This document shows, piece by piece, positions 56 through 22,173 of a stretch of DNA of 25,035 bases (positions are counted from its first letter, which is position 1; each line of letters begins with the position of its first letter). The stretch comes from a virus (Duplodnaviria > Caudoviricetes). The notes beneath the pieces were generated by a model. The model made no database searches, was not told the DNA's origin, and worked only from the letters and a program-made list of their open reading frames with translations. A program made the translations under genes and the position numbers. Location: positions 1 through 25,035 of IMG/VR virus record IMGVR_UViG_3300005805_005355. One strand, given 5' to 3'.

Positions 56-646
56 ATGATTAAATTACTTTTTCCAATGCCAAAACAGGTCACAGTTGCA
101 TTCAGCGGCGGTGTGGATAGTGTTGCCGTTGTGGACTTCTTGTCCAAAAAACATGATGTAACTTGTGCCTTCTTTCATCATGGTACAGATAATAGCGAAC
201 GGGCATTAAAGTTTGTTAGTCATTTCTGTTCTGATAGAAATTTTCCTATGTTTTTGGGTATACTTAATCGTGACAAACCCAGTGACATGAGCTATGAAGA
301 ATTTTGGCGTGAGGAGCGTTATCAGTATTTGAGTACACTGGGACCAGTCATTACTGCTCACCATTTAGATGATTGTGTAGAAACATATCTTTGGTCAGCA
401 ATGCATGGTAAGCCTAAAGTACCTAAACTTGTACGCGGTAATGTTATTCGGCCGTTTCTTACTACACCAAAAAGTGAGTTTATTGACTGGTGTAAAAGAA
501 AAGATTTAGAATGGTGTGAGGACCTTAGTAATGAAGATGAACGGTATACACGCAACTATATCCGTAAAAATCTAGTACCCCATGCGTTCAAAGTAAACCC
601 TGGTCTATACAAAACTGTGAAGAAAATTATTGAGAAGAACCTTTAA
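56..646 (+). CDS. tilS: tRNA(Ile)-lysidine synthase, minimal catalytic domain only
   Basis: PP-loop AFSGGVDS, R..RY, TAHHLDDCVET, IRPFL, EDLSNE..YTRNYIR; 196 aa, lacks the C-terminal tRNA-binding domains. Confidence 0.85.
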   Translation: MIKLLFPMPKQVTVAFSGGVDSVAVVDFLSKKHDVTCAFFHHGTDNSERALKFVSHFCSDRNFPMFLGILNRDKPSDMSYEEFWREERYQYLSTLGPVITAHHLDDCVETYLWSAMHGKPKVPKLVRGNVIRPFLTTPKSEFIDWCKRKDLEWCEDLSNEDERYTRNYIRKNLVPHAFKVNPGLYKTVKKIIEKNL

Positions 647-2733: not shown

Positions 2734-3524
2734 CCACACCTCGTCCAATTGAAGAATATTGGAGTGAGGTTGGCTCGTATAACCCATTGAAAATAAGTAG
2801 ACCTAATAACATTGCGGTCTTGCTTAAAATATTTATTGAAAATTATGCCCCTGAAAATCACAGGGCAAAATTAAATGAATATTTTTATAAATCTCACGCT
2901 CAGATTTATCAGGATCTGATTGTATTGATGTTATTAAATTGGAAAACTCACGGATACTTTGTTGAGTTTGGAGCTACAGACGGTTACGATATTAGTAATA
3001 CGTACCTGTTAGAAAAAGAATTTAATTGGACAGGTATAGTTGCAGAGCCTGCGAAACAATGGCATGATAAACTTGCTGTTAATAGAAAGTGTAATATTGA
3101 CCATAGCGTTGTTTGGAGAGCAAACGAGCTGGTAATGTTCAACGAGAGACACCGCGGAGATGCTAGCGTAGCTGTTGAATATCTCAATCAGGCTGATGAA
3201 CCCACTGGATTTGATATACTTGAGCAATATGAATTACCGGGAATCACGTTAACCAGTTTATTGGACAAGCATAATGCACCGCGTGATATTGATTACATTT
3301 CAATGGATACAGAAGGTAATGAAATTCAAATTTTAGAAAATTTCGATTTTTCAAAATATAAGGTAAAATTCTTCACTATTGAACATAACCAAAAAGAGCA
3401 CAATAGAAAAAGAATTTACGATTTGCTTTCTACAAAAGGTTACGATAGAATTTTAGGTCATATATCCAATTGGGATGACTATTACATATTAAAAGAGTAT
3501 AATATATTCAATGAGCTACGTTGA
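2730..3524 (+). CDS. FkbM-family SAM methyltransferase
   Basis: FVEFGATDG..ISNTY, WTGIVAEP, IDYISMDTEGNE, FTIEHN. Confidence 0.85.
   Translation: MTTPRPIEEYWSEVGSYNPLKISRPNNIAVLLKIFIENYAPENHRAKLNEYFYKSHAQIYQDLIVLMLLNWKTHGYFVEFGATDGYDISNTYLLEKEFNWTGIVAEPAKQWHDKLAVNRKCNIDHSVVWRANELVMFNERHRGDASVAVEYLNQADEPTGFDILEQYELPGITLTSLLDKHNAPRDIDYISMDTEGNEIQILENFDFSKYKVKFFTIEHNQKEHNRKRIYDLLSTKGYDRILGHISNWDDYYILKEYNIFNELR
3475..3503 (+). promoter_or_regulatory. possible internal promoter for the polymerase gene (leaderless)
   Basis: ATGACT (3475-3480), 17 nt, TATAAT (3498-3503); ATG at 3511. Confidence 0.45.
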
Positions 3525-6222
3525 CGCAATACACGACAGAGATGGTGACCGCATTTATGTGGTTGAACGTACGCCTGAGGGGAAACGTACATACAAAGAA
3601 TATCCTTGTAATTATACTTTCTACTATTCTGATTTAAAGGGCAAGTATCGCAGTTTGTTTGGTGATCCAGTAAGTAAGTTTAGTAGTCGTAAACGTGCTG
3701 AGTTTGAAAAAGAACGACGGATACATGCAAATAAAAAATTATTTGAAAGCGACATTAATATTGTATTTCGTTGCCTTTCAGAAAATTATCTTAAAGTAGA
3801 ACCTCCAAAACTAAACACAGCATTCTTTGACATTGAGGTTGACTTTGACCCTGAAAAGGGTTTTAGTCCTACTAGTGACCCTTTTAATCCTGTTACTGCA
3901 ATCAGTCTTTATTTGGATTGGCTTGACCAACTAGTTACATTAGTTATGCCTCCCAAACATATGAGTGACGAGACTGCTACAGAAATATGTAATCAGTTTG
4001 ATAACTGTTTGATGTTCCGTAGTGAGATAGAAATGTTTGAAACATTCTTCCAACTCATAGAAGATGCTGATGTATTGACTGGTTGGAACTCAGAGGGCTA
4101 TGACATACCCTATATGGTCAATCGTGTCACACGTGTAATGAGCAAAGACGATACACGTAAGTTTTGCTTAATGGGTCAGATGCCTAAGCCAAGAGTTTAT
4201 GAACGTTTTGGTAAAGAAGAAACAACATTTGACTTGGTTGGTCGTGTTCACATGGACTATCTACAGTTGTATAAGAAGTACAACTATGAAAGTCGCCATA
4301 GTTATTCACTAGACGCTATTGGCGAAATGGAAGTTGGTGAACGCAAAACACAATACGAAGGTACACTTGACCAGTTGTATAACAAAGACTTTAAAACATT
4401 TATCCAGTATAACAGACAGGATACAATGTTGATGGTTAAGATTCACAATAAACTTAAGTTTTTAGATTTGGCTAACGCACTAGCACATGAAAATACTGTG
4501 CTACTGCCAACTGTCATGGGGTCTGTTGCAATGATTGAAATGGCAATCATGAACGAGGCTCATGAGCGAGGTCTGGTCGTTCCAGACAAAAAACGAAAGG
4601 AAGCAAATGGTGATGAACAACAAGCGGCAGGTGCCTATGTTGCTACGCCCAAAAGGGGCATACACGAATGGGTCGGGGCAGTCGATATCAACAGTCTCTA
4701 TCCGTCAGCAATCCGCGCTCTTAACATGGCCCCGGAGACCATTGTCGGACAGGTTAGACAAACACTTACTAACCAATACATGCACGACAAAGGTAGAAAA
4801 CTAGCAAGTGAAAAGAAACGTGCTAAAGATGATGACGAAGTAACAGGTAGTATCTTGTGGGAAGGATTGTTTGGTAGCTTAGAATACACAGCAATCATGA
4901 ACCAAGAACGTGGTACTATGCTTACACTTGACTATGAAAATGGTGACAGTGTAGAAATGAGTGCCGCCGAATTGTGGAAGCTTATCTTTGACAGTCACAA
5001 GCCATATATACTTTCAGCGAATGGCACAATCTTTCGTAGTGATCAAGAAGGTGTGATTCCAGGACTGCTTACACGTTGGTATACAGAACGTAAATCAATT
5101 CAAAAGCAGGCTAAGGAAAGTTATGGAACCGACATGTTTGAATATTACGACAAGCGACAACTTGTACGTAAGATTTTGCTTAACTCGGCATATGGTGCAT
5201 TGTTGAATGAACATTGTCGTTTTTATGACAAACGCATTGGTCAAAGTGTTACGTTGAGTGGTCGTCAAATTGTTAAGCACATGATGAGTACAATCAACGA
5301 AGTTGTTGCGGGGCAATATGATCACAATGGTCCCGCAATCGTGTATGGTGATACTGATTCATGCTATTTTACTGCGTACCCTATTCTCAAAGAACAAATT
5401 GATAAAGGTGAGTTAGAGTGGAATAAGGATGCGTGTGTTCAGGTATATGACACTATTGCTGAACAAACTAACGAAACGTTCCCTGCGTTTATGGAACGTG
5501 CGTTTCATGCTCCTCGTAAGAATGGCGCTATCATCAAAGCTGGTCGTGAATTGATCGGTGATCGTAGTATTTTTATTACTAAGAAACGTTATGCTATCAA
5601 CATCTTTGACAAAGAAGGTAAGCGTAAAGACAAAGATGGTAAACTAGGTGATATCAAGGCTATGGGTCTTGATTTGAAACGTGCTGATACTCCTAAGTAC
5701 GTACAAGAATTCTTAATGCGTGTTTTGAGTATGGTTATACAAGAAGGTAAACAAAGAGAGGACATTATTGAAGCCATCAAAGACTTTAAAAAGATTTTGT
5801 CTGCTCAGGATAGTTGGACTAAAGGTAGTCCTAAATCTGTCAACAAACTTACCTATTATGAAGAACTTGAAAAGTCTAGTCCAACAGGTCGTGCCAACAT
5901 GCCCGGTCACGTTCGCGGTGCATTGAATTACAACTATCTACGTAAAGCAAATAGTGATAATTATTCTATGAAAATTGTAGATGGTATGAAAGTCATTGTT
6001 TGTAAATTAAAACCTAACCCATTGAACTTTACAAGTATCGCATATCCAACTGATGAATTACGTTTGCCAAAATGGTTTTGTGAGCTTCCATTTGATGATA
6101 ATGAAATGGAACGTACTCTTGTAGACGAAAAAATAGAAAACTTATTGGGTGTATTAAACTGGGATCTTAGAGACAATACGAACACTAATAGCACATTTGA
6201 TGATTTATTTTCATTCGGCTAA
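3511..6222 (+). CDS. family B DNA polymerase with 3'-5' exonuclease (gp43-like)
   Basis: ExoI FDIEV, ExoII GWNSEGYDIPY, ExoIII YNRQD; polymerase motifs DINSLYPS, KILLNSAYG, YGDTDS, KKRYA; C-terminal FDDLFSFG tail. Confidence 0.97.
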   Translation: MSYVDAIHDRDGDRIYVVERTPEGKRTYKEYPCNYTFYYSDLKGKYRSLFGDPVSKFSSRKRAEFEKERRIHANKKLFESDINIVFRCLSENYLKVEPPKLNTAFFDIEVDFDPEKGFSPTSDPFNPVTAISLYLDWLDQLVTLVMPPKHMSDETATEICNQFDNCLMFRSEIEMFETFFQLIEDADVLTGWNSEGYDIPYMVNRVTRVMSKDDTRKFCLMGQMPKPRVYERFGKEETTFDLVGRVHMDYLQLYKKYNYESRHSYSLDAIGEMEVGERKTQYEGTLDQLYNKDFKTFIQYNRQDTMLMVKIHNKLKFLDLANALAHENTVLLPTVMGSVAMIEMAIMNEAHERGLVVPDKKRKEANGDEQQAAGAYVATPKRGIHEWVGAVDINSLYPSAIRALNMAPETIVGQVRQTLTNQYMHDKGRKLASEKKRAKDDDEVTGSILWEGLFGSLEYTAIMNQERGTMLTLDYENGDSVEMSAAELWKLIFDSHKPYILSANGTIFRSDQEGVIPGLLTRWYTERKSIQKQAKESYGTDMFEYYDKRQLVRKILLNSAYGALLNEHCRFYDKRIGQSVTLSGRQIVKHMMSTINEVVAGQYDHNGPAIVYGDTDSCYFTAYPILKEQIDKGELEWNKDACVQVYDTIAEQTNETFPAFMERAFHAPRKNGAIIKAGRELIGDRSIFITKKRYAINIFDKEGKRKDKDGKLGDIKAMGLDLKRADTPKYVQEFLMRVLSMVIQEGKQREDIIEAIKDFKKILSAQDSWTKGSPKSVNKLTYYEELEKSSPTGRANMPGHVRGALNYNYLRKANSDNYSMKIVDGMKVIVCKLKPNPLNFTSIAYPTDELRLPKWFCELPFDDNEMERTLVDEKIENLLGVLNWDLRDNTNTNSTFDDLFSFG

Positions 6223-6230
6223 ACTAGTTG

Positions 6231-6281
6231 TTGACATTCGCAATAAATTCCATTATATTACACGCTATAGATGCCTAAATA
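6231..6281 (+). promoter_or_regulatory. sigma70 promoter plus TAAATA motif upstream of the clamp gene
   Basis: TTGACA (6231-6236), 17 nt, TATATT (6254-6259); TAAATA at 6276-6281; AAAGGA SD. Confidence 0.65.
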
Positions 6282-6302
6282 TCTAACACATAAAGGATTA
6301 AC

Positions 6303-7034
6303 ATGAAAGATTATTTACTCGACCTCATTCAACACACACATGGACTAGGTGAAATTGACCTAGTTAAAATTACAGGAACTGAAAAAGAAACACAGATTAA
6401 TGCTGTTGCCGAAAACAAGTCTGTTGTTGTCAGTGGCACATTTAAAGCTCCTGTTGCTGATTTCATTGGCACTTTTGGTATGCCTAATTTGGGTAAGCTT
6501 AAGACAATTGTTGGCTTTGACGAATACGATGAACACTCAAAGATTAATGTAACACGTACTAAACGTGACAATGAAGACGTACCCACTACGATTCACTTTG
6601 AAACAAAGAATGGTGATTTTGTTAATGATTATCGTTTGATGACCAAGAGCATTGTCGAAGAAAAAGTTCGCACATTGATGTTTAAGGGTGCTACTTGGAA
6701 CGTTGAGTTTGAACCAAGCGTTGCAGGTATTATGCGGTTAAAGAAACAAGCTAGTGCTAACAGCGAAGAACAACATTTTACAATGACTACAGTTGGTTCT
6801 GATCTTAAGATTAACTTTGGGGATCCTAGTACTCATAGTGGTAATTTTGTATTCCATGCAGGTGTTACTGGCAAACTTGCCCAGCCATGGAAGTGGCCTG
6901 TTAAGGTATTTCAGTCTATCATGGATTTGCCCGGTGACAAAACTGTTAAGATTGCCGATCAAGGTGCTACTGAAATCACAGTTGATAGTCCATTTGCAAC
7001 TTATAAATATCTTCTTCCTGCACAAAGCAAATGA
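6303..7034 (+). CDS. probable DNA sliding clamp (gp45/PCNA-like)
   Basis: 243 aa (two-domain clamp size), directly after the polymerase, alternating beta/alpha pattern, ends YKYLLPA like clamp C-termini. Confidence 0.6.
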   Translation: MKDYLLDLIQHTHGLGEIDLVKITGTEKETQINAVAENKSVVVSGTFKAPVADFIGTFGMPNLGKLKTIVGFDEYDEHSKINVTRTKRDNEDVPTTIHFETKNGDFVNDYRLMTKSIVEEKVRTLMFKGATWNVEFEPSVAGIMRLKKQASANSEEQHFTMTTVGSDLKINFGDPSTHSGNFVFHAGVTGKLAQPWKWPVKVFQSIMDLPGDKTVKIADQGATEITVDSPFATYKYLLPAQSK

Positions 7035-7402
7035 TTAAGAACCTATCAGGTGGTCCAGGCATTATAGTACACGGTGGTAATAGTTCATATCCATATGTGA
7101 ATATGAGTCACCCCAGTGCAGGTATGGTTAGATATAATGGTAGTAATCAAACCTTAGAAGTATATGATGGTTCAAGTTGGATGACTATGAGTGGTAATTA
7201 TACTACACTAGAATTAGACGCTGATACTAGGTCGTTGCTTGAATGGGCTAGGGCTAAACGTGCTGAAGAAGAATATCTGAAAAAAGAAGCAGAAACTAAT
7301 CCAACCATTAAAGATTTAATTGTCCAGCGTAATCAAATTGATGATAAAATTACAATGGTTAAAACATTATTGAAAAATGAATGTAAGGTTTGTGAAGTTT
7401 AA
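7031..7402 (+). CDS. hypothetical protein
   Basis: 123 aa, ATGA overlap; GMVRYN..LEVYDGSSW motif then coiled coil. Confidence 0.7.
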   Translation: MIKNLSGGPGIIVHGGNSSYPYVNMSHPSAGMVRYNGSNQTLEVYDGSSWMTMSGNYTTLELDADTRSLLEWARAKRAEEEYLKKEAETNPTIKDLIVQRNQIDDKITMVKTLLKNECKVCEV

Positions 7403-7410
7403 TAAAGTCT

Positions 7411-8946
7411 ATGATAGAACAAAATAATCTTTCTAACAATCAAAATCCAGATTGGGCGTTGTTTTTGCCTGCTGTATCTAGTTTCTTTATAAGCGGATTA
7501 GGAAAACAACGTGAAGGGGAACAATACTTTGATAAAGCCCGTATTCCTGCAGGCTTCAACGGTGATGTTGAATGTCTTAACTTTCTAAACAGTAAACAAG
7601 GACTTTATACTTACAAATGGGGATTATATAGCGCAGGTCATGCCAACTTAGACCCTACTAAAAATGATAACGCTGAATCTATAATCCGTAAACGTGAACA
7701 AGGTACGTTTATGTTAGGTGACAGCGGAGGTTTTCAGATTTTAAAAGGACAATGGCCAGCTGATTGGAAGGATCCTAACTGTCCTAAAGCTATGGCTAAA
7801 CGTAAAGAAGTATTATTATGGATGGACACATACATGGACTATGGTATGTGTTTGGATGTACCTAGTGAAAGTTATCGCAATACAAAAGCATACGAACAAC
7901 ATAAGATTGCAAATCTGGCAGATGCGGTAAAAGCCACGCATATCAACAATGAATATTTTATTCAACATCGTAATGGCAATTGTAAGTTCCTTAACGTAAT
8001 GCAAGGATTGACACATTCGGATAGTGATAATTGGTACAACGAAATGAAAAAATATTGTGATCCAAATATCTATCCTGATAATCATTTTAATGGTTGGGCA
8101 TTTGGTGGTCAGAACAAAATTGATGTAGATTTAATGCTACGTAGGCTTGTTAATATTATCCATGATGGATTATTAGTAGAAGGAAAGCATGATTTACTGC
8201 ATTGCTTGGGTGTCAGTATTATGGAGTATGCCGTATTGTTTACAGATATACAAAAGGCTATTCGTAAATATCATAATCCCAATTTCAAAATTACATTTGA
8301 CTGTGCAAGTCCTTTCTTTAGTGCAGCCAAAGGTCTAGCGTATTTCAATACCAGTATTGAACACAATAGAAAATGGTCATATAGTATGGAAAAAACTGCT
8401 GAAAATAAAAATTATGCAACTGATAACAGAAAGTTTAGGGACGCTGTATTGGCTGATGGTATCCATGATCTATTTACAGATAGTCCTGTAACTGATAGAA
8501 TGCTTATTAAAGATTTGTGTTACAGAGGTCATGGATTTATTAATAATCAAGGTAAAGAAACAAAAACAAGTTGGGACACATTAAGTTACACATTACTTCA
8601 AGCACATAATGTATACCAGCATATTGTCGCAGTACAAGAAGCTAACCGTCGTTATGAACAAGGTATTATACCAAAAATGTTGATGCGTGAAACTTTTGAA
8701 CGTGAACGTTTTGGTGAGATAGTAGATGAAATTTTTAGATTAAATAATAGAAATAAAAGTCTTGCATTGATTAAAAAGCATGAAAATCTATGGACACAAA
8801 TGCAAAGCGGTAGTCAAGGTTTAAGTGGCAAAAAAACTATTAATGCAATTACGATGTTTAATCAATTATTTGAGAGCACACAATCTGAACCCGAAATTGA
8901 GGAAGAGGATAGTGATGATGAAATGCTAAAAGCATTGGAGGATTGA
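7411..8946 (+). CDS. dpdA: TGT-family guanine transglycosylase, probable DNA-acting DpdA
   Basis: GDSGGFQI, MCLDVP, LNVMQG, GWAFGG, HCLG, TFDCASP, HNV; no CxCxxC zinc motif of tRNA TGTs; folE/queD/queE context. Confidence 0.75.
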   Translation: MIEQNNLSNNQNPDWALFLPAVSSFFISGLGKQREGEQYFDKARIPAGFNGDVECLNFLNSKQGLYTYKWGLYSAGHANLDPTKNDNAESIIRKREQGTFMLGDSGGFQILKGQWPADWKDPNCPKAMAKRKEVLLWMDTYMDYGMCLDVPSESYRNTKAYEQHKIANLADAVKATHINNEYFIQHRNGNCKFLNVMQGLTHSDSDNWYNEMKKYCDPNIYPDNHFNGWAFGGQNKIDVDLMLRRLVNIIHDGLLVEGKHDLLHCLGVSIMEYAVLFTDIQKAIRKYHNPNFKITFDCASPFFSAAKGLAYFNTSIEHNRKWSYSMEKTAENKNYATDNRKFRDAVLADGIHDLFTDSPVTDRMLIKDLCYRGHGFINNQGKETKTSWDTLSYTLLQAHNVYQHIVAVQEANRRYEQGIIPKMLMRETFERERFGEIVDEIFRLNNRNKSLALIKKHENLWTQMQSGSQGLSGKKTINAITMFNQLFESTQSEPEIEEEDSDDEMLKALED

Positions 8947-9117: not shown

Positions 9118-9348
9118 ATGGATAATACTACACAATTTGAACCTTATCTTAATGTGGGCATACCCGCTACGATTGAACCTAGCAATATAGTATTGAATAG
9201 CAATATGACAGAAATGTTGCGTATAGCAAAAGATGGTTTCTATGTTCGCGGTGTAAAAATTGAGCAGGACGAAAAAGAAGCAGAAAAGGTATACAATGCC
9301 TTTCATCAATGGTTAACTTGGGCAACAATTACTAGAGACTTCGGATGA
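9118..9348 (+). CDS. hypothetical protein
   Basis: 76 aa, tightly packed, ATGA overlap with next gene. Confidence 0.65.
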   Translation: MDNTTQFEPYLNVGIPATIEPSNIVLNSNMTEMLRIAKDGFYVRGVKIEQDEKEAEKVYNAFHQWLTWATITRDFG

Positions 9349-10187
9349 AGTATAAAAAAATTATTACATCAGGATGTAGTTTTAGTTCAAATGAAACTCC
9401 CTATACTTGGCCATTGCAACTAGAATCATATGTACAAAAAAATATTAATTCAAATGTAAAATTTGACCATCGGGGCTTATCTAGTCAAGGGCAAGAATTG
9501 ATTGCAAAAAAATCAGCACATGCAATTTATGAAGCATTGTCTACTGGATATAAGCCTGAAGAAATAGCTGTATTTGTAATGTGGTCTAGTAGTGATAGAA
9601 AATCTTTTTACATCGACAACCCAGACACTATTAAAGAATTAGTTAATAATTGGACTGGTTCTAAACAGGGCTGGTCATTGCAATTATCAGATTTACAAAA
9701 CAATAGAAATAATTTAGAATTATGTCATTCTAAAGCCGAAAATAATAATTTGATTTATTATCATTCAGGTGGGGGTTGGTACATTACTTCAGCGCATGTT
9801 AAGGACGAATTAAAATTTGTACGTGATTATTTTCTGACTAGTAAGGATAGTGTATCTTTGGCACTATGCCATGATGCATTACAATATATTACGTATTTGC
9901 AACACCTTTGCAAATCAAAAGGTATCAAACTATATCAACAATTCTATATGGAAAATATCGTTGAGGATATTGAAAGATACAAAGGGCATCAAATTATTGA
10001 CTATTTGTATAATGATATTGATTGGTCTACGTTTATTTCTAAACAATCAATCCATAATTATTTAAGCAGCAACATCGACTATTTTGTTGGAGTTAATAAT
10101 GCACATCCCAATGGATTAGGTCACAGAATTTGGTTAAACGAGGTAATCTTACCGCATTTACAAGACGATGGTTTTTTTGAGGACTAA
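9345..10187 (+). CDS. SGNH/GDSL-like protein, paralog 1
   Basis: TSGCSFS, TWP, VMWSSSDR, AHPNGLGH. Confidence 0.6.
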   Translation: MKYKKIITSGCSFSSNETPYTWPLQLESYVQKNINSNVKFDHRGLSSQGQELIAKKSAHAIYEALSTGYKPEEIAVFVMWSSSDRKSFYIDNPDTIKELVNNWTGSKQGWSLQLSDLQNNRNNLELCHSKAENNNLIYYHSGGGWYITSAHVKDELKFVRDYFLTSKDSVSLALCHDALQYITYLQHLCKSKGIKLYQQFYMENIVEDIERYKGHQIIDYLYNDIDWSTFISKQSIHNYLSSNIDYFVGVNNAHPNGLGHRIWLNEVILPHLQDDGFFED

Positions 10188-10189
10188 AA

Positions 10190-10648
10190 ATGGATAATAG
10201 AGAAGTAGAACTTAGCAATAAACGTCAACGTATTAAAGACAAAGCCAGGCGTATGATTTGGGTTACATTTCGTAAAGAAGGTATACATAAATACCCGGCA
10301 GCACTGGAAGACCCTGCGCTAAAAACAGGAGACATGTATGACGTTTCGTTCTTGGGCTATCCCCATAGGCATATTTTTCATTTTACTGTTGCCATTCAAG
10401 TATGGCATAACGACAGAGATGTGGAATTCATTCAATTCAAGCGTTGGCTTGAACAATTGTATTCTAGCGCACAAGGTGTTTTGTCGCTAGATTTTAAAAG
10501 CTGTGAAATGATTAGCGATGATTTATATGAACAAATCGCTAGTCGTTACCCAGGGCGTGACATTGAGATTACCGTTTCCGAAGACGGTGAGAACGGTGCC
10601 ACAATTTATTATAAAACTCATCAACCTTATCAACAACTAGCCATTTAA
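10190..10648 (+). CDS. QueD-like T-fold protein, candidate CDG decarboxylase (DpdL-like)
   Basis: QueD-like layout F..EGIH, LGYPHRHIF, EFIQFK, SCEMI, VSEDGENGA; Leu replaces the catalytic Cys of CxxxHGH. Confidence 0.6.
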   Translation: MDNREVELSNKRQRIKDKARRMIWVTFRKEGIHKYPAALEDPALKTGDMYDVSFLGYPHRHIFHFTVAIQVWHNDRDVEFIQFKRWLEQLYSSAQGVLSLDFKSCEMISDDLYEQIASRYPGRDIEITVSEDGENGATIYYKTHQPYQQLAI

Positions 10649-10871: not shown

Positions 10872-11625
10872 AATTGTACTAGTGACTGGGGGATTTGACC
10901 CCCTTCACTCAGGTCACATTGAATATTTTAAGGCTGCAAAGGAGTTAGGTGACATATTAGTTGTAGGTCTTAATTCTGATGCATGGTTGGCTCGTAAAAA
11001 GGGCCAACCTTTTATGCCATTTAATGAACGACAAAGTATTGTTGAAAATTTATACATGGTAGACCATTGTATTTTGTTTAATGATGACGATGGCTCAAGT
11101 ACAGAGGCAATTAAAAATGTAAGAATGATGTATCCTGATGCAGAAATTATTTTTGCAAATGGTGGCGATAGAACATCAGTCAATATTCCAGAATTAGAAT
11201 TTAAAGATAGCAATTTAATTTTTAAATTTGGTGTAGGAGGTTCTACAAAAAAGAACAGTTCCAGTTGGATATTAGAAGAATGGAAGAATCCAAAATATAA
11301 ACGCCCATGGGGTTGGTATCGTGTACTTGATGATAAGCCAGGATACAAAGTAAAAGAATTGGTAATCGAACCTGGCAAAAGATTAAGTATGCAACGCCAT
11401 TTTCTACGTAGCGAACATTGGTATATATTAAAGGGTAAATGCGATATTGCAACTGACTACAAAGGTAGTAAAATAACAGTACATAAAGAAGTACATGAAA
11501 CATATGTTATTGGAAAAGAAGTTTGGCATCAAGGACAAAACAACTATGATGAATATTGCCACATACTTGAAGTCCAATACGGTGACGAATGTGTGGAAAC
11601 AGATATAGAGAGGCGTGATGCGTAA
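10855..11625 (+). CDS. cytidylyltransferase-like (RfaE/HldE type) domain fused to type II mannose-6-phosphate isomerase cupin
   Basis: TGGFDPLHSGH, VGLNSD, FANGGDR, NSSS; RPWGWY, LSMQRH..RSEHW, ILEVQYG. Confidence 0.85.
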   Translation: MQKPTKIVLVTGGFDPLHSGHIEYFKAAKELGDILVVGLNSDAWLARKKGQPFMPFNERQSIVENLYMVDHCILFNDDDGSSTEAIKNVRMMYPDAEIIFANGGDRTSVNIPELEFKDSNLIFKFGVGGSTKKNSSSWILEEWKNPKYKRPWGWYRVLDDKPGYKVKELVIEPGKRLSMQRHFLRSEHWYILKGKCDIATDYKGSKITVHKEVHETYVIGKEVWHQGQNNYDEYCHILEVQYGDECVETDIERRDA

Positions 11626-12793
11626 ATTATATTACATGGGTCTAGAACCCTACAAAGCAAGATACACACTACAATTGACGGATTGGAATGAAAGAGTTTT
11701 CAAACGTAGAAAAATTAACTATGAAATCGTACATGGTGAAACATTAACTAGTGATCAAAATATTGTTACAGGTCAAGTGTTAGATGCACATGGTCGAAGC
11801 TATTTTGGCATGAGTCAAATGATGAATCTTGTTAAATTAATGAAAGAAGGAAAAGTTACAAATGAAGATGTTATCTACTTTGAGGACATGTTTCAACCCG
11901 GTATCGAAAGTTTACCTTACATATTGGACCAAATCCCTAGTAATCTACGTCCCCGCATTTATGTTAGGTGTCTTGCTCAGTCCATTGATCCTGATGATTT
12001 TGTCCATGTATGGGATATGGCGAAATGGATGGGAGCCTACGAAAAAATGGTTAATGAGTTCGTGGATGGGGTTCTCGCCACAAATGAAGAAATGGTTGCT
12101 CATATGCGTATTGCTGGATGGAATGCTCCTGTATACAATATTAGTGGCTTAGCATTTGGTAAGGAAGAAGTCGAACAGCGTGTTGAAGGTAAAATTAAGC
12201 CCTTTACAAATCGTAGAATGCGTGTAGTGTTTGCCGCACGTTGGGATCAAGAAAAGCAACCTGATTTCTATATGGATGTAATTGAAGAATTCAATCGTAG
12301 ACATCCCAAAACTGTTGAATTCGTTTTGTGCAGTGGTGGTAAATTGCGTAGTAACAATGATAGTTACATGAAACGCACACGCAAATTAGAAGCAGAAAAC
12401 AAACTGACTATCTATGAGGACTTAGATAAAAATACTTACTATGATATTCTTAATGATAGTAGGGTTTTGTTTAATTGCGCTTTACAAGATTGGGTATCAA
12501 ATACTGTATCTGAAGCAGATACATTAGGATGTAACGTGTTGTATCCTGCTTATCGCAGTTTCCCAGAAACTTTTGCCAACGACCATGAACGTCTTTATGT
12601 TCCATGGTCAATAGATGATGCTGTCAATAAACTTGAAACATTATTAAAAAAGCCGCACACAAACATGGGAAAAATTAGTAATTACAATAACGGTACTATC
12701 GACAGGATATGCGATATCCTTGAGGGTAAAGGTGAACAATGGCTGCGTATGTCAAGTGATTATCGCAAACATACAAGAGAAGCGAAATATTAA
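11618..12793 (+). CDS. GT-B (GT4-like) glycosyltransferase
   Basis: VFAARWDQEKQP, FNCALQDWVSNTVSEA (D-x7-E), YRSFPE; ATG 11618 after GAGAGG. Confidence 0.7.
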   Translation: MRKLYYMGLEPYKARYTLQLTDWNERVFKRRKINYEIVHGETLTSDQNIVTGQVLDAHGRSYFGMSQMMNLVKLMKEGKVTNEDVIYFEDMFQPGIESLPYILDQIPSNLRPRIYVRCLAQSIDPDDFVHVWDMAKWMGAYEKMVNEFVDGVLATNEEMVAHMRIAGWNAPVYNISGLAFGKEEVEQRVEGKIKPFTNRRMRVVFAARWDQEKQPDFYMDVIEEFNRRHPKTVEFVLCSGGKLRSNNDSYMKRTRKLEAENKLTIYEDLDKNTYYDILNDSRVLFNCALQDWVSNTVSEADTLGCNVLYPAYRSFPETFANDHERLYVPWSIDDAVNKLETLLKKPHTNMGKISNYNNGTIDRICDILEGKGEQWLRMSSDYRKHTREAKY

Positions 12794-13002: not shown

Positions 13003-14082
13003 ATGCGTATCGAAGATGACATTAAGCTAGACTTTAGAGATGTATTGATACGTCCTAAGCGTAGCACTCTGGCTAGTCGTAAAGAAGTTGATTTGAAACG
13101 TACATATAAATTTAAGCACAGTGGTTTTGGTTGGACAGGTGTTCCTATCATGGCAGCTAATATGGATGGTGTAGGTACGCCTGCTATGGCTATAGCACTT
13201 TCCGAACATAAGATGTTTACGTGTCTAGTCAAATCATTAGATCGGGATGAATTCCCTAAACTATCTGATAGTATCGGTGGTAATTATTTTGCCGTAAGTA
13301 CTGGAACTAGTGAAAAAGACTTAAATAGATTAGTAGCCATACTAGAAGATAATCCTGCAATACATTTTATTTGTATTGATATTGCAAATGGATATAGCGA
13401 ACATTTTGGAGACTTTGTTGCCGAAGTTCGTAGACTATATCCTAAACACACTATCATAGCAGGCAATGTAGTAACGGCTGATATGACACAGGAGTTGATA
13501 CTACGTGGAGCCGATATTGTTAAAGTGGGGATTGGGCCTGGTAGCGTTTGTACTACTCGTATTCAAACAGGCGTTGGCTATCCACAACTTTCTGCAATCA
13601 TCGAATGTGCGGACGCTGCTCATGGTCTTGGTGGACACATTATTGCTGATGGCGGTTGTACTTGTCCTGGGGATGTCGCTAAAGCCTTCGGAGCTGGCGC
13701 TGATTTTGTCATGCTCGGGGGCATGTTAGCAGGCCATGATGAAGGTGGCGGTGAAATTATTTATAAAAGTATTTTACTTAATGAATTGAGTAATGAGACT
13801 GGTGAACAGTTTGTAGATACAATCGAATATGTAAAATTCTATGGTATGAGTAGTGACACAGCCATGAATAAACATCATGGTGGCGTTGCTAATTATCGTA
13901 GTAGTGAGGGTCGCACAGTAGAAGTTAAATACCGCGGTCCAGTTAAAAATACTGTACTAGATTTACTAGGTGGTTTGCGTAGTACTTGTACATATGTCGG
14001 AGCTCCTTCATTAAAACAACTAAGCAAGTGTACTACATTTATAAGAGTAAATAGACAAATAAATGATGTATTCTTAAAATGA
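13003..14082 (+). CDS. guaC: GMP reductase
   Basis: [64 protein letters not shown]; no CBS domains. Confidence 0.92.
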
Positions 14083-14855
14083 TAAACTATTTTATAAGCA
14101 CTGGTTGCAGTTTCACCGAAATTCCTGTGAAGGAATTTCATAAGGAAACCTATGTAAATACTGATGCTTACCCGCATTATGCGTTTTCATGGCCTGTACA
14201 TGTCAATAATATATTAAAGTCTAAACCATGTTACAAGGGTAAAGGTGGATCTGGTAATGGTATCATAAGTCGAACCACAATTTATGAAGTTAATAAGGCA
14301 TTAAGAACATATAAACCTGAAGAATTATTAGTAGGTATCATGTGGAGCGGTGCATATAGACATGAGATTTATTCTTCAAATATGCATAATAGTTACCATG
14401 CTATAGACAATGGTGTTAAGAATCAAAATAACCCAGCATCAATTGGTAGAGGATACAAATATTATAAAGTGATGCCTTATTGGGATGATGAACTATCAAA
14501 AATGTATTATAAAAACATTTATGATGAAGTAGGTTCATATATAGAAACAATTGAACATATATTAAGAGTTCAATGGTTTCTAAAAAATCATAACATAAAA
14601 TATTTTATGACCACTTACTTTCCTGAAGTTTTTCCTAAAAATAAAAATCATGAAGATATAAAATACCTGTATGATATGATTGACTTTGATAATTTTTTAG
14701 ATGTTGATAGTGAATGGGAGTGGTGCGCCAGATATCAAAATCCCAAAACATGGGATGATCTTGGTCATGATCACCCACATCCACATACAAAACAGCACAA
14801 AGCATTTGCGGAACAGGTAATCATTCCTCATTTACAGAAAAAAGGATACATATAA
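14079..14855 (+). CDS. SGNH/GDSL-like protein, paralog 2
   Basis: [35 protein letters not shown]. Confidence 0.6.
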
Positions 14856-15185: not shown

Positions 15186-15875
15186 ATGTCATATAACAAA
15201 ACAAAAACCGATCCCGATTTGGGTCAACGAGTACACGAACATCTAGTCAAGATGGGAGTAGAAACTCCAACATCAAATCACCCATTGGGTCAGATGGATC
15301 GTAAAAGTAAAATTGCAGTATTAGAAACACACTTTAAAGAAATTCTAGAGGTTTTGGGATTAGATTTAAGTGATGATTCACTAAGCGAAACACCTTTGCG
15401 TATTGCAAAGATGTATATCAACGAAATCTTTTGGGGACTTGACTATGAAGCTTTCCCCAAGTGTACTACAGTTGATAATAAAATGAAGTACAATGAAATG
15501 GTGGTGGAAAGAAATGTCAGTGTTCAAAGTAATTGTGAGCACCATTTTGTTATTATTGATGGGCTTGCTACTGTTGCATATGTGCCTAAGGATAAAGTGT
15601 TGGGACTATCTAAGATTAATCGTATCGTAGAATATTTCAGTAAGCGTCCTCAAATTCAGGAACGACTTACAGAACAAATTTTTCATACGTTACAATTCAT
15701 TCTTGATACCGAAGATGTTGCTGTAATGATTGATGCACAACATTATTGCGTTAAGAGTCGTGGTGTCGAAGATACTGGTAGTTCGACTGTCACTAGCCGT
15801 CTTGGTGGTGGGTTTAAGAACGATCCAGCAGTACGCAATGAATTTTATCAGATTGCAAGACAGGGATGTAAATGA
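15186..15875 (+). CDS. folE: GTP cyclohydrolase I
   Basis: ETPLRIAKMY, SNCEHHF, GLSKINRIV, RPQIQERLT, HYCVKSRGV. Confidence 0.95.
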   Translation: MSYNKTKTDPDLGQRVHEHLVKMGVETPTSNHPLGQMDRKSKIAVLETHFKEILEVLGLDLSDDSLSETPLRIAKMYINEIFWGLDYEAFPKCTTVDNKMKYNEMVVERNVSVQSNCEHHFVIIDGLATVAYVPKDKVLGLSKINRIVEYFSKRPQIQERLTEQIFHTLQFILDTEDVAVMIDAQHYCVKSRGVEDTGSSTVTSRLGGGFKNDPAVRNEFYQIARQGCK

Positions 15876-17768: not shown

Positions 17769-17807
17769 AGCGGTCTTTGGCATCATCCCGCTTTATAAAT
17801 TCTGCTG
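17769..17807 (+). ncRNA. candidate preQ1-I-like riboswitch aptamer in the queD leader
   Basis: P1 AGCGG/CCGCT, loop starting with U and ending CAUC, A-rich tail, possible pseudoknot UGGCA/UGCUG. Confidence 0.5.
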
Positions 17808-17842
17808 TCATCAAACTTGCTACTTTTATAAGGAGACTAGAG

Positions 17843-18349
17843 ATGGCAAACTTACAACCAATAACTTACAAATATGTAAGTACAAAAGAATATCACGATG
17901 CATTTCCCTGTGCGTATCGTCAATGGCGTGCTGATAGTCATTGTAATCTTATACACGGTTACAGCTTTAGCATGAAATTCTATTTCGGCACAAACGAACT
18001 AGACGTTCGTAACTGGGCTATGGACTATGGTGGCCTAAAAGAACTGAAGAAGATTCTTGAGGATCAATTTGACCATACATTACTTGTAGCCGAAGATGAT
18101 CCCGAGTTAGAAACTTTTAAACTATTACAAGAAAAGAAATTAGCAAAACTAACGATCCTTCCGAGGCTAGGTTGTGAAGGTCTTGCTGATATGCTTTACG
18201 AATATGTAAATAGTGTTTACATTCCTGATATGTTAGGTCAATGTGAAGCAGATCGTCTTTGGTGCTATCGTGTAGAAGTAAGAGAAACACAAAGCAATAT
18301 GGCTTATCGTGAAGGCCATCGTGAATGGAATGAATTTTTATTAAAATAA
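17843..18349 (+). CDS. queD: 6-carboxy-5,6,7,8-tetrahydropterin synthase
   Basis: HCNLIHGY, MDYGGLK, FDHTLL, GCEGLA, VEVRET; ATG 17843 follows AAGGAG (TTG 17777 extension unlikely). Confidence 0.85.
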   Translation: MANLQPITYKYVSTKEYHDAFPCAYRQWRADSHCNLIHGYSFSMKFYFGTNELDVRNWAMDYGGLKELKKILEDQFDHTLLVAEDDPELETFKLLQEKKLAKLTILPRLGCEGLADMLYEYVNSVYIPDMLGQCEADRLWCYRVEVRETQSNMAYREGHREWNEFLLK

Positions 18350-18960: not shown

Positions 18961-20135
18961 AAAAGATTGCTGTTGTAGGCGCAGGTGTTGCTGGTATAAC
19001 CACAGCATATTATCTAGCAAAAGCAGGATTTAACGTTACTGTATTTGAACAAGATCGTTATCCTGCCATGCGTTGTAGCTATGCAAATGGCGGACAAATT
19101 AGTGTAAGCAACAGTGAAGTTTGGACTACATGGGCTAATATTAAAAAGGGCCTTAAATGGATGTTCAAAAAAGATGCTCCTTTACTTATTCGTCCTAGTT
19201 TGGATTGGGACAAGTTTTTTTGGCTTTTAGATTTTATTAAGCATACAGCTAATAATGACTATTACAAAAACACTATTGAAACTATACGAATGGGTATGCA
19301 ATCACGCAGGCTTTATCAAGAAATGTTAGAATCAGAACAAATAGAATTTGATAAAGCTGATTCAGGTATATTGCACATTTATAAAAACCAAGAGTACTTT
19401 CAACATGCAATACGTGTTCAACAAATGTATGAAGAAAATGGTTGTGAATGGGATATCATTAACTATGAAAAAGCTTGTAGTATAGATCCTGCATTAAAAA
19501 CTGTAAGCGGTGTAGTTGGCTGCGCTTGGACTCCTAGTGATTTTGTCGGTGATATACATAAGTTTTGTTATAATCTTGCCGACATTTTAAAATCTAAGTA
19601 TAATGTAACTTTTGTTTATAATTATAAAAAGCACATCATTAGCAATTCATATGACTATCATATTGTTTGTGCAGGTGTTAACAGTACGGAAATTGCTAGA
19701 GACTTGGGCGAGAGACTTCCTGTGTATCCTGTTAAGGGATATAGTATTACTATTCCCACAAAAAATTTGTCGCAGGATGCTGTACCAAAAGTAAGCTTGC
19801 TTGATGACGAAGCTAAAATTGTATCTTCATTTTTAGGAGATAAGTTGCGTGTAGCAGGCACAGCAGAATTAACTGGAATTAACTATGATATTCGTAGAGA
19901 TAGAATTGAACCGTTATTACAATGGGTAAATACTAACTTTCCAAATGTAAACACGCATGAATATTCTAGCTGGGCATGTTTGCGTCCTATGACTCCCAAT
20001 ATGATGCCTATTACCAAACGTAGTGACAAGAACGAAAAAGTATTTTATAATACAGGACATGGTCACCTAGGATGGACATTGGCACCATATACTGCTAAAC
20101 TAATTACGGATACATTATGCACCACATTAAAATAA
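18957..20135 (+). CDS. D-amino acid dehydrogenase (DadA)-like FAD oxidoreductase
   Basis: GAGVAG, SYANGGQIS, YPVKGYS, LRVAGTAEL, LRPMTP, NTGHGHLGWT. Confidence 0.85.
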   Translation: MKKIAVVGAGVAGITTAYYLAKAGFNVTVFEQDRYPAMRCSYANGGQISVSNSEVWTTWANIKKGLKWMFKKDAPLLIRPSLDWDKFFWLLDFIKHTANNDYYKNTIETIRMGMQSRRLYQEMLESEQIEFDKADSGILHIYKNQEYFQHAIRVQQMYEENGCEWDIINYEKACSIDPALKTVSGVVGCAWTPSDFVGDIHKFCYNLADILKSKYNVTFVYNYKKHIISNSYDYHIVCAGVNSTEIARDLGERLPVYPVKGYSITIPTKNLSQDAVPKVSLLDDEAKIVSSFLGDKLRVAGTAELTGINYDIRRDRIEPLLQWVNTNFPNVNTHEYSSWACLRPMTPNMMPITKRSDKNEKVFYNTGHGHLGWTLAPYTAKLITDTLCTTLK

Positions 20136-20968
20136 GTGAGTTGTTTTACAGCATTCAAGGCGAAGGTAGATACATGGGAGTACCCAGTGTCTTTCTCAGA
20201 ACATTTGGTTGTAACTTCAAATGTGCTGGCTTTGGAATGCCTAAAGGTGAATTAAGCGAGGAGAGAATTAAGGTTGCTGAATTTATCGAATTTTATAAAG
20301 ATTATAAATCCTTACCGCTTGTCGGTACGGGATGTGATTCTTATGCATCTTGGGACCCTAATTTCAGGCATCTTAGTCCTTATATTGATACCATTGATAT
20401 TGTTACTCGCATTATGGATTTACTTCCATATAATCGTTGGGTGGATGAGCATTTGGTTATCACAGGTGGTGAACCGTTACTAGGATGGCAACGTGCGTAT
20501 CCCGAACTACTAAGCTATCCTCAAATGCTAGCATTGAAAGAACTAACATTTGAAACTAACGGCACACAACCACTACAAGAAGAATTTAAAAAATTCTTAC
20601 AAAAGCAATGGCATAAACAAAAAGGTATTGAAACAATTACATTTAGTGTTAGTGCAAAGCTTTCTAGTAGTGGCGAGAAACGTGAAGATGCTATTTGTCC
20701 CGAAGTGGTACGTGAATATGAAATGTATGGTCATGCATATCTAAAATTTGTTATTGCAACCGATGAAGATATGGAAGAAGTTTTAGACGTTGTAAACGAA
20801 TATCGCAAAGCCAGTTTTATGGGTAACGTTTATGTTATGCCCGTTGGCGGCGTCGAAAAAGTATACAGTATGAATAATCGCAAAGTTGCTACACTTGCAA
20901 TGAAGCATGGTTTGCGTTATAGTGATAGATTACAAGTTCCGCTGTTTAAAAACGAGTGGGGAACTTAA
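20117..20968 (+). CDS. queE: 7-carboxy-7-deazaguanine synthase (radical SAM)
   Basis: ELFYSIQGEG, VFLRTFGCNFKC...CDS, ITGGEP, ETNGT, LKFVI, RLQV. Confidence 0.9.
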   Translation: MHHIKISELFYSIQGEGRYMGVPSVFLRTFGCNFKCAGFGMPKGELSEERIKVAEFIEFYKDYKSLPLVGTGCDSYASWDPNFRHLSPYIDTIDIVTRIMDLLPYNRWVDEHLVITGGEPLLGWQRAYPELLSYPQMLALKELTFETNGTQPLQEEFKKFLQKQWHKQKGIETITFSVSAKLSSSGEKREDAICPEVVREYEMYGHAYLKFVIATDEDMEEVLDVVNEYRKASFMGNVYVMPVGGVEKVYSMNNRKVATLAMKHGLRYSDRLQVPLFKNEWGT

Positions 20969-21151: not shown

Positions 21152-21373
21152 ATGTTTTTTGACGTTGATATTTTTAATAAATTTGTAATAGGCACAGAGT
21201 TAAAATTTGTTTTTTTACCAAAAAGGTGCTATATAACAGGAAAATTGTTATGGCTCCAATATGTATATAAACAAACTGCTATGTACGTGGGTCCTGATAT
21301 TCCCTTGTTTGAATATCGATACTATGACAAGAATGAATTCATAATTAAAAGATTAAAAGATTTGGTTACATGA
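21152..21373 (+). CDS. hypothetical protein
   Basis: 73 aa, tightly packed, FLPKRCYITGKLLWL. Confidence 0.65.
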   Translation: MFFDVDIFNKFVIGTELKFVFLPKRCYITGKLLWLQYVYKQTAMYVGPDIPLFEYRYYDKNEFIIKRLKDLVT

Positions 21374-22173
21374 GTCGATTATTTACTTTTGGTTGTAGCT
21401 TTACTGCTTATGAATGGCCCACATGGGCTGATATTTTAGGTCGTCAATTTGATTTTTTTGAAAATTGGGGTAAACCTGGTGCTGGCAATCAATTTATTTG
21501 CAATTCAATTGCGGAAGCTGATGCAAAATATAATTTTGGTAAAGATGATACCATAATTGTCATGTGGTCAAGTATGATGCGTGAAGATCGTTATATTCAA
21601 AATGGATGGCTGACTCCGGGCAATTTTTTAGGACATGGTAAAGAATATTATAGTGAAGAATTTCAAAAAAAATTTATAACAGTTCGAGGATGCTATATAC
21701 GTGACCTAGCATCGATGTATTTAGTTTACACAATGTTAAAAAATAAAGGATGTAACTTTCACTTTTTAAGTATGATTGATATTAATTTTCCAAGTGACAT
21801 GTATACAAACTATTTTATCCAAAAATTAAAATTACAAAAAGAATTAGATAGTATTGCAGATGTCCTTGACAGATACAAAGATTTAATTGAGTTAATAAAA
21901 CCAAGTGTACATAAAGTGATTTTTAATTATGATTGGCAAAGTAGAAAACTATTTATGGCCCCATCATCAAAAACAGGACAACTACATAGAGCAGACACAC
22001 ACCCGTTGCCAATAGAACATCTTGAATATTTAGAAAAAGTATTGCCTGAGTTTACACATTCAACAGAAACTAAAAACTGGGTTAAACAAGTCACTGATGA
22101 GGTCTGTAGTTTAATTTTTTACAAAAATACTAGTTGGAATCCATTAATGTATACACCAAAGAACAGATTATGA
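21370..22173 (+). CDS. SGNH/GDSL-like protein, paralog 3
   Basis: TFGCSFT, WPTWAD, GKPGAGNQFI, VMWSSMMREDR, DTHPLPIEH. Confidence 0.65.
   Translation: MSRLFTFGCSFTAYEWPTWADILGRQFDFFENWGKPGAGNQFICNSIAEADAKYNFGKDDTIIVMWSSMMREDRYIQNGWLTPGNFLGHGKEYYSEEFQKKFITVRGCYIRDLASMYLVYTMLKNKGCNFHFLSMIDINFPSDMYTNYFIQKLKLQKELDSIADVLDRYKDLIELIKPSVHKVIFNYDWQSRKLFMAPSSKTGQLHRADTHPLPIEHLEYLEKVLPEFTHSTETKNWVKQVTDEVCSLIFYKNTSWNPLMYTPKNRL

Follow-up and report, generated by a model that had tools for sequence, protein, structure and literature searches.

A predicted DNA guanine transglycosylase of a tailed phage very probably binds the phage sliding clamp through a short peptide near its C terminus, in the pocket used by the tail of the phage DNA polymerase. 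The gene is in IMG/VR virus record IMGVR_UViG_3300005805_005355 (Duplodnaviria; Caudoviricetes), a linear record of 25,035 bases estimated to be 7% complete, which we analyzed in its entirety and refer to as the window. Comparison of polymerase and transglycosylase tails across phages, together with a weak model of the complex, argues for the binding. We consider it fairly probable that the whole chain of events holds, in which the peptide docks on the clamp and the enzyme exchanges guanine in fresh phage duplex near the replication fork. Peptides that bind clamps, enzymes of the DpdA type and DNA modifiers held on clamps are already known separately; a literature search, with most subscription journals outside its scope, found no paper joining DpdA to a clamp.

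The polymerase, clamp and transglycosylase genes

The polymerase gene is followed by open reading frames (ORFs) for proteins of 243, 123 and 511 amino acids (aa) and then by genes for DpdL-like, GT-B, FolE, QueD and QueE-like proteins, all on the + strand. Of 80 close IMG/VR loci, 77 have the order polymerase-clamp-enzyme and the remaining three are interrupted by contig ends. The 511-aa protein matched proteins of Pseudomonas phages Paride and PA5oct (33.6%; 14 records matched) and, among other cultured phages, of Sinorhizobium phage Phosso and Vibrio phage 2.275.O. The cultured relatives of the window virus are jumbo phages.

The polymerase (903 aa, 3511..6222) is of family B, gp43 type (Pfam DNA_pol_B, 2.7e-43; PHROG 262). 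Its best solved relative is 1clq_A (903 aa, E 2.2e-65), which we take to be RB69 gp43. The protein terminates NTNSTFDDLFSFG*, and TTT GAT GAT TTA TTT at 6196-6210 encodes F896-F900 (FDDLF), a predicted clamp-interacting peptide. The prediction is based on the sequence, on the tails of relatives (first F of the motif in 45 of 50) and on a spacing identical to that of T4 SLDFLF. In Paride the polymerase gene (L081:2605-7831) is interrupted by a homing endonuclease gene, and the motif is on the C-terminal piece.

The 243-aa ORF (6303..7034) is well supported, by structure prediction, as a PCNA-superfamily sliding clamp. A Pfam search matched no family, and no significant sequence match was found among solved structures. 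The AlphaFold model (monomer, 97-row alignment) has a predicted local distance difference test score (pLDDT) of 90 and the two-domain clamp fold. Foldseek matched this model to PCNA (best E 2.8e-10, template modeling score ~0.66-0.70), with PCNA chains throughout the matches listed, and in the top rows the model was nearer PCNA than T4 gp45. Phage homologs carry PCNA or sliding clamp annotation; the Paride counterpart is Paride_0113, and for the PA5oct homolog (EST35_0314, L292:412-1158) the annotation is structural protein, based on mass spectrometry of virions. The 123-aa ORF (7031..7402), which is missing in some relatives, separates clamp and enzyme, and a first-pass annotation of the window, made from the sequence alone, was right to put a clamp gene between polymerase and enzyme. 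No clamp loader gene was found within the window. According to Iyer et al. 2021 (PMC7824862), the clamp loaded by jumbo phages whose replication apparatus is T4-like belongs to the PCNA superfamily, and a deazaguanine system is present in PA5oct; the accessible part of that paper mentions no link between the two.

The 511-aa protein (7411..8946; folded core approximately residues 1-467) is a predicted DpdA2-related DNA guanine transglycosylase; its TGT/DpdA fold, with intact active-site residues, is well supported. The model (mean pLDDT 92.8, 140-row alignment) has the TIM-barrel fold of the tRNA-guanine transglycosylases (TGTs), and among solved structures tRNA TGTs match it best. We reduced 218 loci in which the enzyme gene is complete to 58 representatives at 80% identity; these rows are related, and counts of motifs among them are not independent. 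In S. Montevideo DpdA the active site has three aspartates and a base-stacking aromatic (Asp95, Asp130, Asp256 and Phe99). The residues equivalent by motif order and spacing, without superposition, are D104, D149 and D297, each in 58/58, and F/Y108, also in 58/58. Fold and acidic residues bear out the DpdA-like label of the first-pass annotation. The DpdA2 subfamily does not have the conserved histidine of DpdA1 and bDpdA, and at the position inferred to be equivalent (again without superposition) 57 of the 58 enzymes have Q198.

TGTs have a structural zinc motif, CxCxxC...H. We did not find CxCxxC in the enzyme among the aligned relatives, nor in DpdA2 of phage nt-1 (YP_008125322), which is active; its absence therefore bars a classic TGT or bDpdA and not a DpdA2-like enzyme. 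A pairwise search with the 511-aa protein did not match nt-1 DpdA2, and a profile search of genomes missed nt-1, but a sensitive profile search with the enzyme family did match it (E 1.1e-6). The profile matched the 259-aa DpdA3 of phage phiST with an E of only 0.003. Six related enzymes of ~550 aa (L134, L140, L141, L143, L147 and L176 (G004)) form a tail-less clade with intact catalytic residues and are encoded behind a glycosyltransferase gene and not next to the clamp; they amount to a negative control provided by nature.

A polymerase-like peptide in the enzyme tail

The transglycosylase has, outside its confident fold, the FxxLF motif found at the end of the polymerase. TTT AAT CAA TTA TTT at 8857-8871 encodes F483-F487 (FNQLF), a predicted clamp-interacting peptide that follows SGSQGLSGKK and precedes an acidic tail; the first-pass coordinates of both motifs were exact. 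Residues 471-494 have pLDDT <50, the enzyme model draws a helix at 479-486, and several relatives (L054, L063, L066, L067 and L075) end at the motif, as the polymerase does. The motif is thus not buried in the fold. Burial and lack of conservation were two of the three outcomes named at the outset as damaging to the proposal, and neither was seen. The acidic tail (8872..8943), missing in several relatives ending at the motif, has a conserved terminal helix (residues 501-510, window 8911-8940, pLDDT ~72) with the pattern DxDDxMxxxL in close and DDxxLxxLE in distant relatives; this helix may be a second docking element.

The motif is conserved in homologs down to approximately 30% identity. Among 56 close relatives, F483 is present in 55, L486 in 54 and F487 in all, and distant relatives retain the motif alone in this region of the tail. 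The codons for the motif leucine are of five kinds among relatives, which indicates selection at the level of the protein. The segment before the motif, SGSQGxSG (residues 466-473, 8806..8829), had been called a G/S-rich linker. It is rich in G and S and does precede the motif, but in close relatives it is not a neutral spacer, since S466-G470, S472, G473 and N478 are invariant in 56/56 close relatives; these residues are not retained in distant ones.

The motif is largely specific to the two proteins. In the window, FxxLF is found in 2 of 25 genes of at least 100 aa, those for the polymerase and the 511-aa enzyme, and its background frequency is 22 per 209,255 residues. Across the representative loci it is in the tail of 34/58 enzymes versus the last 60 residues of 6/924 other mechanically called genes. 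A scoring matrix derived only from the tails of 50 polymerases gave a score of at least 10 to 29/58 enzymes and to 2/924 other proteins, and 41/58 enzyme tails outscored their own shuffles at p <0.05. The window enzyme itself had a modest score (6.4; shuffle p 0.007). Polymerase and enzyme had the top two C-terminal scores in Paride (406 ORFs) and in records G001 (183 ORFs) and G002 (191 ORFs); scoring anywhere in the protein gave other matches, one of which outscored the polymerase in G001.

A few other proteins have similar ends. Endonuclease-like ORFs just 3' of the enzyme gene in two loci (L114:12230-12811 and L121:11557-12141), one with a weak T5orf172 match (E 0.043), have near-C-terminal FNSLF and FQNLF; these ORFs may encode further clients of the clamp or have arisen as duplications by insertion. 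In Phosso, gene 228 (L084:12520-12927) encodes a 135-aa protein without a Pfam family that ends LNDLFDFG*, like the FNDLFTF* of the phage's own polymerase, and is a candidate for a further clamp client.

The motif appears to relocate when its usual site decays. We used close relatives fitting an anchor pattern (489 sequences, 110 distinct tails, reduced to 59). A new C-terminal xxxLF or FxxFF was present in 8/8 tails with a worn canonical site and in 2/51 with an intact one, and the canonical and new sites are 25-50 residues apart. On a 54-row tree there were five changes; of four independent pairs, 3.9 on average went in the same direction and none in the opposite one. A motif able to move this far behaves as a linear docking motif.

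The enzyme tail resembles the polymerase tail within individual phages. The polymerase and enzyme motifs are FDSLF and FNSLF in Paride and NTDLFDW and NNDLFGW in Vibrio phage 2.275.O, and in L103 and L153 both proteins have V in the motif. The correspondence is clearer in T4-like phages, which we compared by taking ACP17, nt-1 and one record from each of four other genera among 71 matches to the ACP17 enzyme. In four of these six cultured DpdA2 phages the T4-type [ST]L[DE]x[LF]F closes both proteins, and the two members of each pair agree in having LF or FF: ACP17 (SLDDLFE/TLDELFE), BUCT-ZZ01 (TLDDFFS/SLDSFFD), X1 (SLESLFG/SLEELFG) and Ps15 (SLEDLFGW/SLDDLFG). The jumbo group has the F-form in polymerase and enzyme, in contrast to the L-form in these four phages. 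We infer that the T4-like DpdA2 phages have gp45-type clamps; a homolog search with the window clamp did not match the clamps of these phages.

The window peptides also resemble known clamp-binding peptides. RB69 has the tail peptide LFDMF. T4 gp43 ends in the clamp-interacting peptide SLDFLF, and a loop of T4 DNA ligase has LDFLF (dissociation constant 10.7 uM) (PMC6212786, PMC12746103). The T4 part of the precedent invoked by the first-pass annotation is borne out by these papers; the RB69 part is general background. As with these gp45 clients, the window peptides have hydrophobic-x-x-L-F spacing, an acidic context and a terminal or flexible site, and one peptide is common to the polymerase and a second enzyme. 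Unlike in T4 and RB69, the first residue is F and not L, the clamp model is nearest PCNA, and the client is a base-exchange enzyme and not a replication or transcription factor.

A model of the complex pointed weakly in the same direction. With the clamp monomer and enzyme residues 468-498 the score was 0.41, compared to 0.02 for the best control; agreement between runs covered at least 55% of contacts, and the partner pLDDT was at least 52, with no contacts listed. Of 157 solved pairs 116 reached the score mark, as did 2 of 215 mismatched pairs; those that reached it with a score of at most 0.60 were only 18 of the solved pairs and the two mismatched ones. The structure prediction proposed at the outset gave weak support for the enzyme peptide.

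Proposed coupling to replication and alternative explanations

We propose that the FxxLF peptide of the enzyme would dock in the pocket between the domains of a clamp subunit, like the T4 gp43 and ligase peptides. A trimeric clamp ring would allow polymerase and enzyme to bind at the same time. Carried by clamps that stay behind on freshly copied phage DNA, the enzyme would exchange guanine for a 7-deazaguanine near the fork; the tether would raise its local concentration, and modification would follow synthesis. A bias toward phage DNA would be expected, this being the sole DNA bearing the phage clamp. That the tether couples modification to synthesis and favors phage DNA seems to us a reasonable, somewhat favored expectation.

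Several observations weigh against this proposal. The complex model is weak, its alignment was chosen for the motif, and it may reflect likeness to solved complexes of PCNA with its interacting peptides. The relocation result gives p 0.125 in an independent-pairs sign test, which cannot reach significance. In record G003 (99% complete) the enzyme motif, YNALF, is below the list threshold. Co-variation at the first motif position is partial in the jumbo group, with two concordant events and discordant cases in L071, L139, L228, L030 and L094/L110/L131. The full conservation of SGSQGxSG and N478 in close relatives suggests a possible additional function for some of the tail. Among the T4-like phages, the enzyme copy is worn in pf16 (SLEDFFS/TLDLMCA), and nt-1 DpdA2 is without the motif (TLESFFG/AEYPDFKS); the DpdA2 enzymes of nt-1 and VH7D are active in E. 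coli, where no phage clamp is present (Cui 2023, bioRxiv 10.1101/2023.04.13.536721). The six-row clade (support 100) and L122 have tail-less enzymes and keep the polymerase motif, many shorter enzyme relatives also end without the motif, and no tail was found in phiST DpdA3, although phiST replaces all of its G (Cui 2023). The tail is therefore an option and not a requirement. Finally, an interaction proposed between T4 alpha-glucosyltransferase and gp45 could be reproduced neither in vitro nor in vivo (bioRxiv 10.64898/2025.12.06.692756). The first-pass interpretation, that the enzyme rides the clamp and modifies DNA right behind the fork, is thus partly supported: it retains its clamp partner and a conserved, exposed motif that tracks the polymerase tail, but it does not extend to the tail-less members, and an enzyme on a clamp might also act away from the fork.

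The alternatives differ in what the peptide would bind and when. The T4 clamp gp45 also serves late transcription, via gp33 and gp55, and the window clamp could likewise be a sliding or localizing platform away from the fork, for late scanning, recombination sites or marking of phage DNA, with modification not timed with synthesis. The motif evidence fits such a platform equally well, and Cui et al. call deazaguanine insertion post-replicative (bioRxiv 10.1101/2023.04.13.536721). Two features point instead toward the replication machinery, and neither settles timing: the enzyme motif closely copies the polymerase tail, and the clamp and enzyme genes are in one run behind a putative sigma-70-like promoter (TTGACA-17-TATATT, 6231..6259, 11/12 matches). 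This site was the top one in a promoter scan that gave 35 sites versus 26.7 expected, and a looser form of the pattern is present in 27/50 relatives. We regard the platform as unlikely, though it is the main rival. That the peptide has a target other than the clamp, and either folds back on its own enzyme or oligomer or contacts another partner common with the polymerase, is improbable. The modeled helix at 479-486 and the conservation of the entire stretch 461-487 in close relatives, beyond F, L and F, would fit it, but the low pLDDT in spite of a 140-row alignment, the retention of the motif alone in distant relatives, its relocation by 25-50 residues and the change of the enzyme tail to the T4 form along with the polymerase would not.

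It is very improbable that the enzyme modifies tRNA and uses its tail for another purpose. The tRNA TGTs are its best solved folds and the window has a gene for a TilS-like PP-loop protein, but the list of PDB matches is mostly tRNA TGT entries, the profile reaches DpdA2-type proteins, and DpdL and a QueC-less set of FolE, QueD and QueE are nearby. Chance likeness, or a duplication or signal at the level of the DNA, is largely refuted. The motif is short, the background rate would place FxxLF somewhere in approximately 5% of proteins of 511 aa, and the two motif DNA stretches are identical at 12/15 bases. Against this are the conservation to ~30% identity, the spread of synonymous codons, the relocation, and LF endings in enzymes encoded away from the clamp gene (L082, L120, L191 and L200).

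The predicted deazaguanine pathway and significance of the proposal

The substrate would be DNA, and the base most likely 7-deazaguanine made via FolE, QueD, QueE and DpdL without QueC. The window has the gene set of a DpdL-type 2'-deoxy-7-deazaguanine (dDG) pathway. The DpdL-like QueD paralog (10190..10648), a predicted 7-carboxy-7-deazaguanine decarboxylase with the LxxxHRHxF motif, matched phiST DpdL in tblastn (E 1e-10) and the ACP17 protein at 53%, and such a gene is in 44/48 loci. FolE (GTP cyclohydrolase I, 15186..15875, Pfam 2.6e-61), QueD (PTPS family, 17777..18349, Pfam 1e-16) and a QueE-like radical SAM enzyme (20117..20968; Pfam Radical_SAM 5e-4, below the cut-off; Paride homolog annotated QueE-like) complete the set. 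No QueC was found above the cut-off in 5/5 records, which include Paride and a 99% complete relative; the window record itself is 7% complete. The TilS-like protein (window 56-646; Pfam ATP_bind_3 9.7e-33) has a weak N-terminal match to a QueC-like PHROG and might conceivably act in place of QueC. A GT-B glycosyltransferase gene (11615..12793; weak Pfam Glycos_transf_1 match, slightly below the cut-off) accompanies the pathway. Homologs adjoin the enzyme in Paride and many loci, and GT-B genes beside transglycosylase or DpdL include Paride L081:10617-11678, ACP17 L294:5993-7021 and Phosso L084:9832-10923. This proximity hints that the deazaguanine might be further modified with a sugar.

Other genes in the window include a minimal piece of DNA polymerase III alpha (928-2391, - strand) that resembles the split DnaE of group 2.2 jumbo phages. 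Three ORFs of 258-280 aa (9345-10187, 14079-14855 and 21370-22173) have a similar GCSF segment at the start and an HP motif at the end; one matches DUF6071, and they look like paralogs interspersed among the modification genes.

The window system is related to, and distinct from, known systems. It shares FolE, QueD, QueE and DpdL, and apparently the lack of QueC, with the phiST dDG system, but phiST has the small tail-less DpdA3 and the window set has the accompanying GT-B gene. Compared to nt-1 DpdA2, there is no pairwise match and the nt-1 enzyme has no such tail. The accessible parts of Hutinet 2019 (PMC6884629) and Cui 2023 describe no clamp link for phage DpdA, and the word clamp occurs 0 times in that of the latter. 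DNMT1 is held on human PCNA by a short peptide (PMC5264654) and is likewise a DNA-modifying enzyme on a sliding clamp, but it serves eukaryotic maintenance cytosine methylation, with a different enzyme, chemistry and motif. The T4 alpha-glucosyltransferase proposal also had a phage DNA modifier riding the clamp; here, in contrast, the peptide resembles the polymerase tail, is conserved and varies along with that tail.

A clamp tether bears on how base-by-base exchange keeps pace with phage replication and tells phage from host DNA. Reported deazaguanine levels lie between <0.1% and 100% of G, and a number of phage DpdAs did not work in E. coli (Cui 2023). No dDG was detected from ACP17 dpdA plus dpdL in E. 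coli, and the tail-less phiST pair likewise failed (Cui 2023). The ACP17 enzyme ends in a polymerase-like tail, so a missing clamp is a possible explanation for its failure. On a bolder reading, which we consider somewhat less probable than not, large lytic phages with their own clamps would have made the deazaguanine exchange enzyme, in at least two clamp lineages, the main co-passenger of the polymerase on the clamp. The "post-replicative" modification would then be a step of the replisome restricted to phage DNA. DpdA would need its cognate clamp and loader to work well, which would account for the ACP17 result, and heavy substitution would be predicted in the tail-bearing Paride, ACP17 and Ps15, compared to ~0.1% of G in the tail-less nt-1. 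Two hypothetical genes of Paride- and PA5oct-like phages would gain names, as clamp and transglycosylase. A clamp-tethered DpdA would be a phage parallel of DNMT1 on PCNA, the sole earlier phage claim, that for T4 alpha-glucosyltransferase, not having been reproduced.

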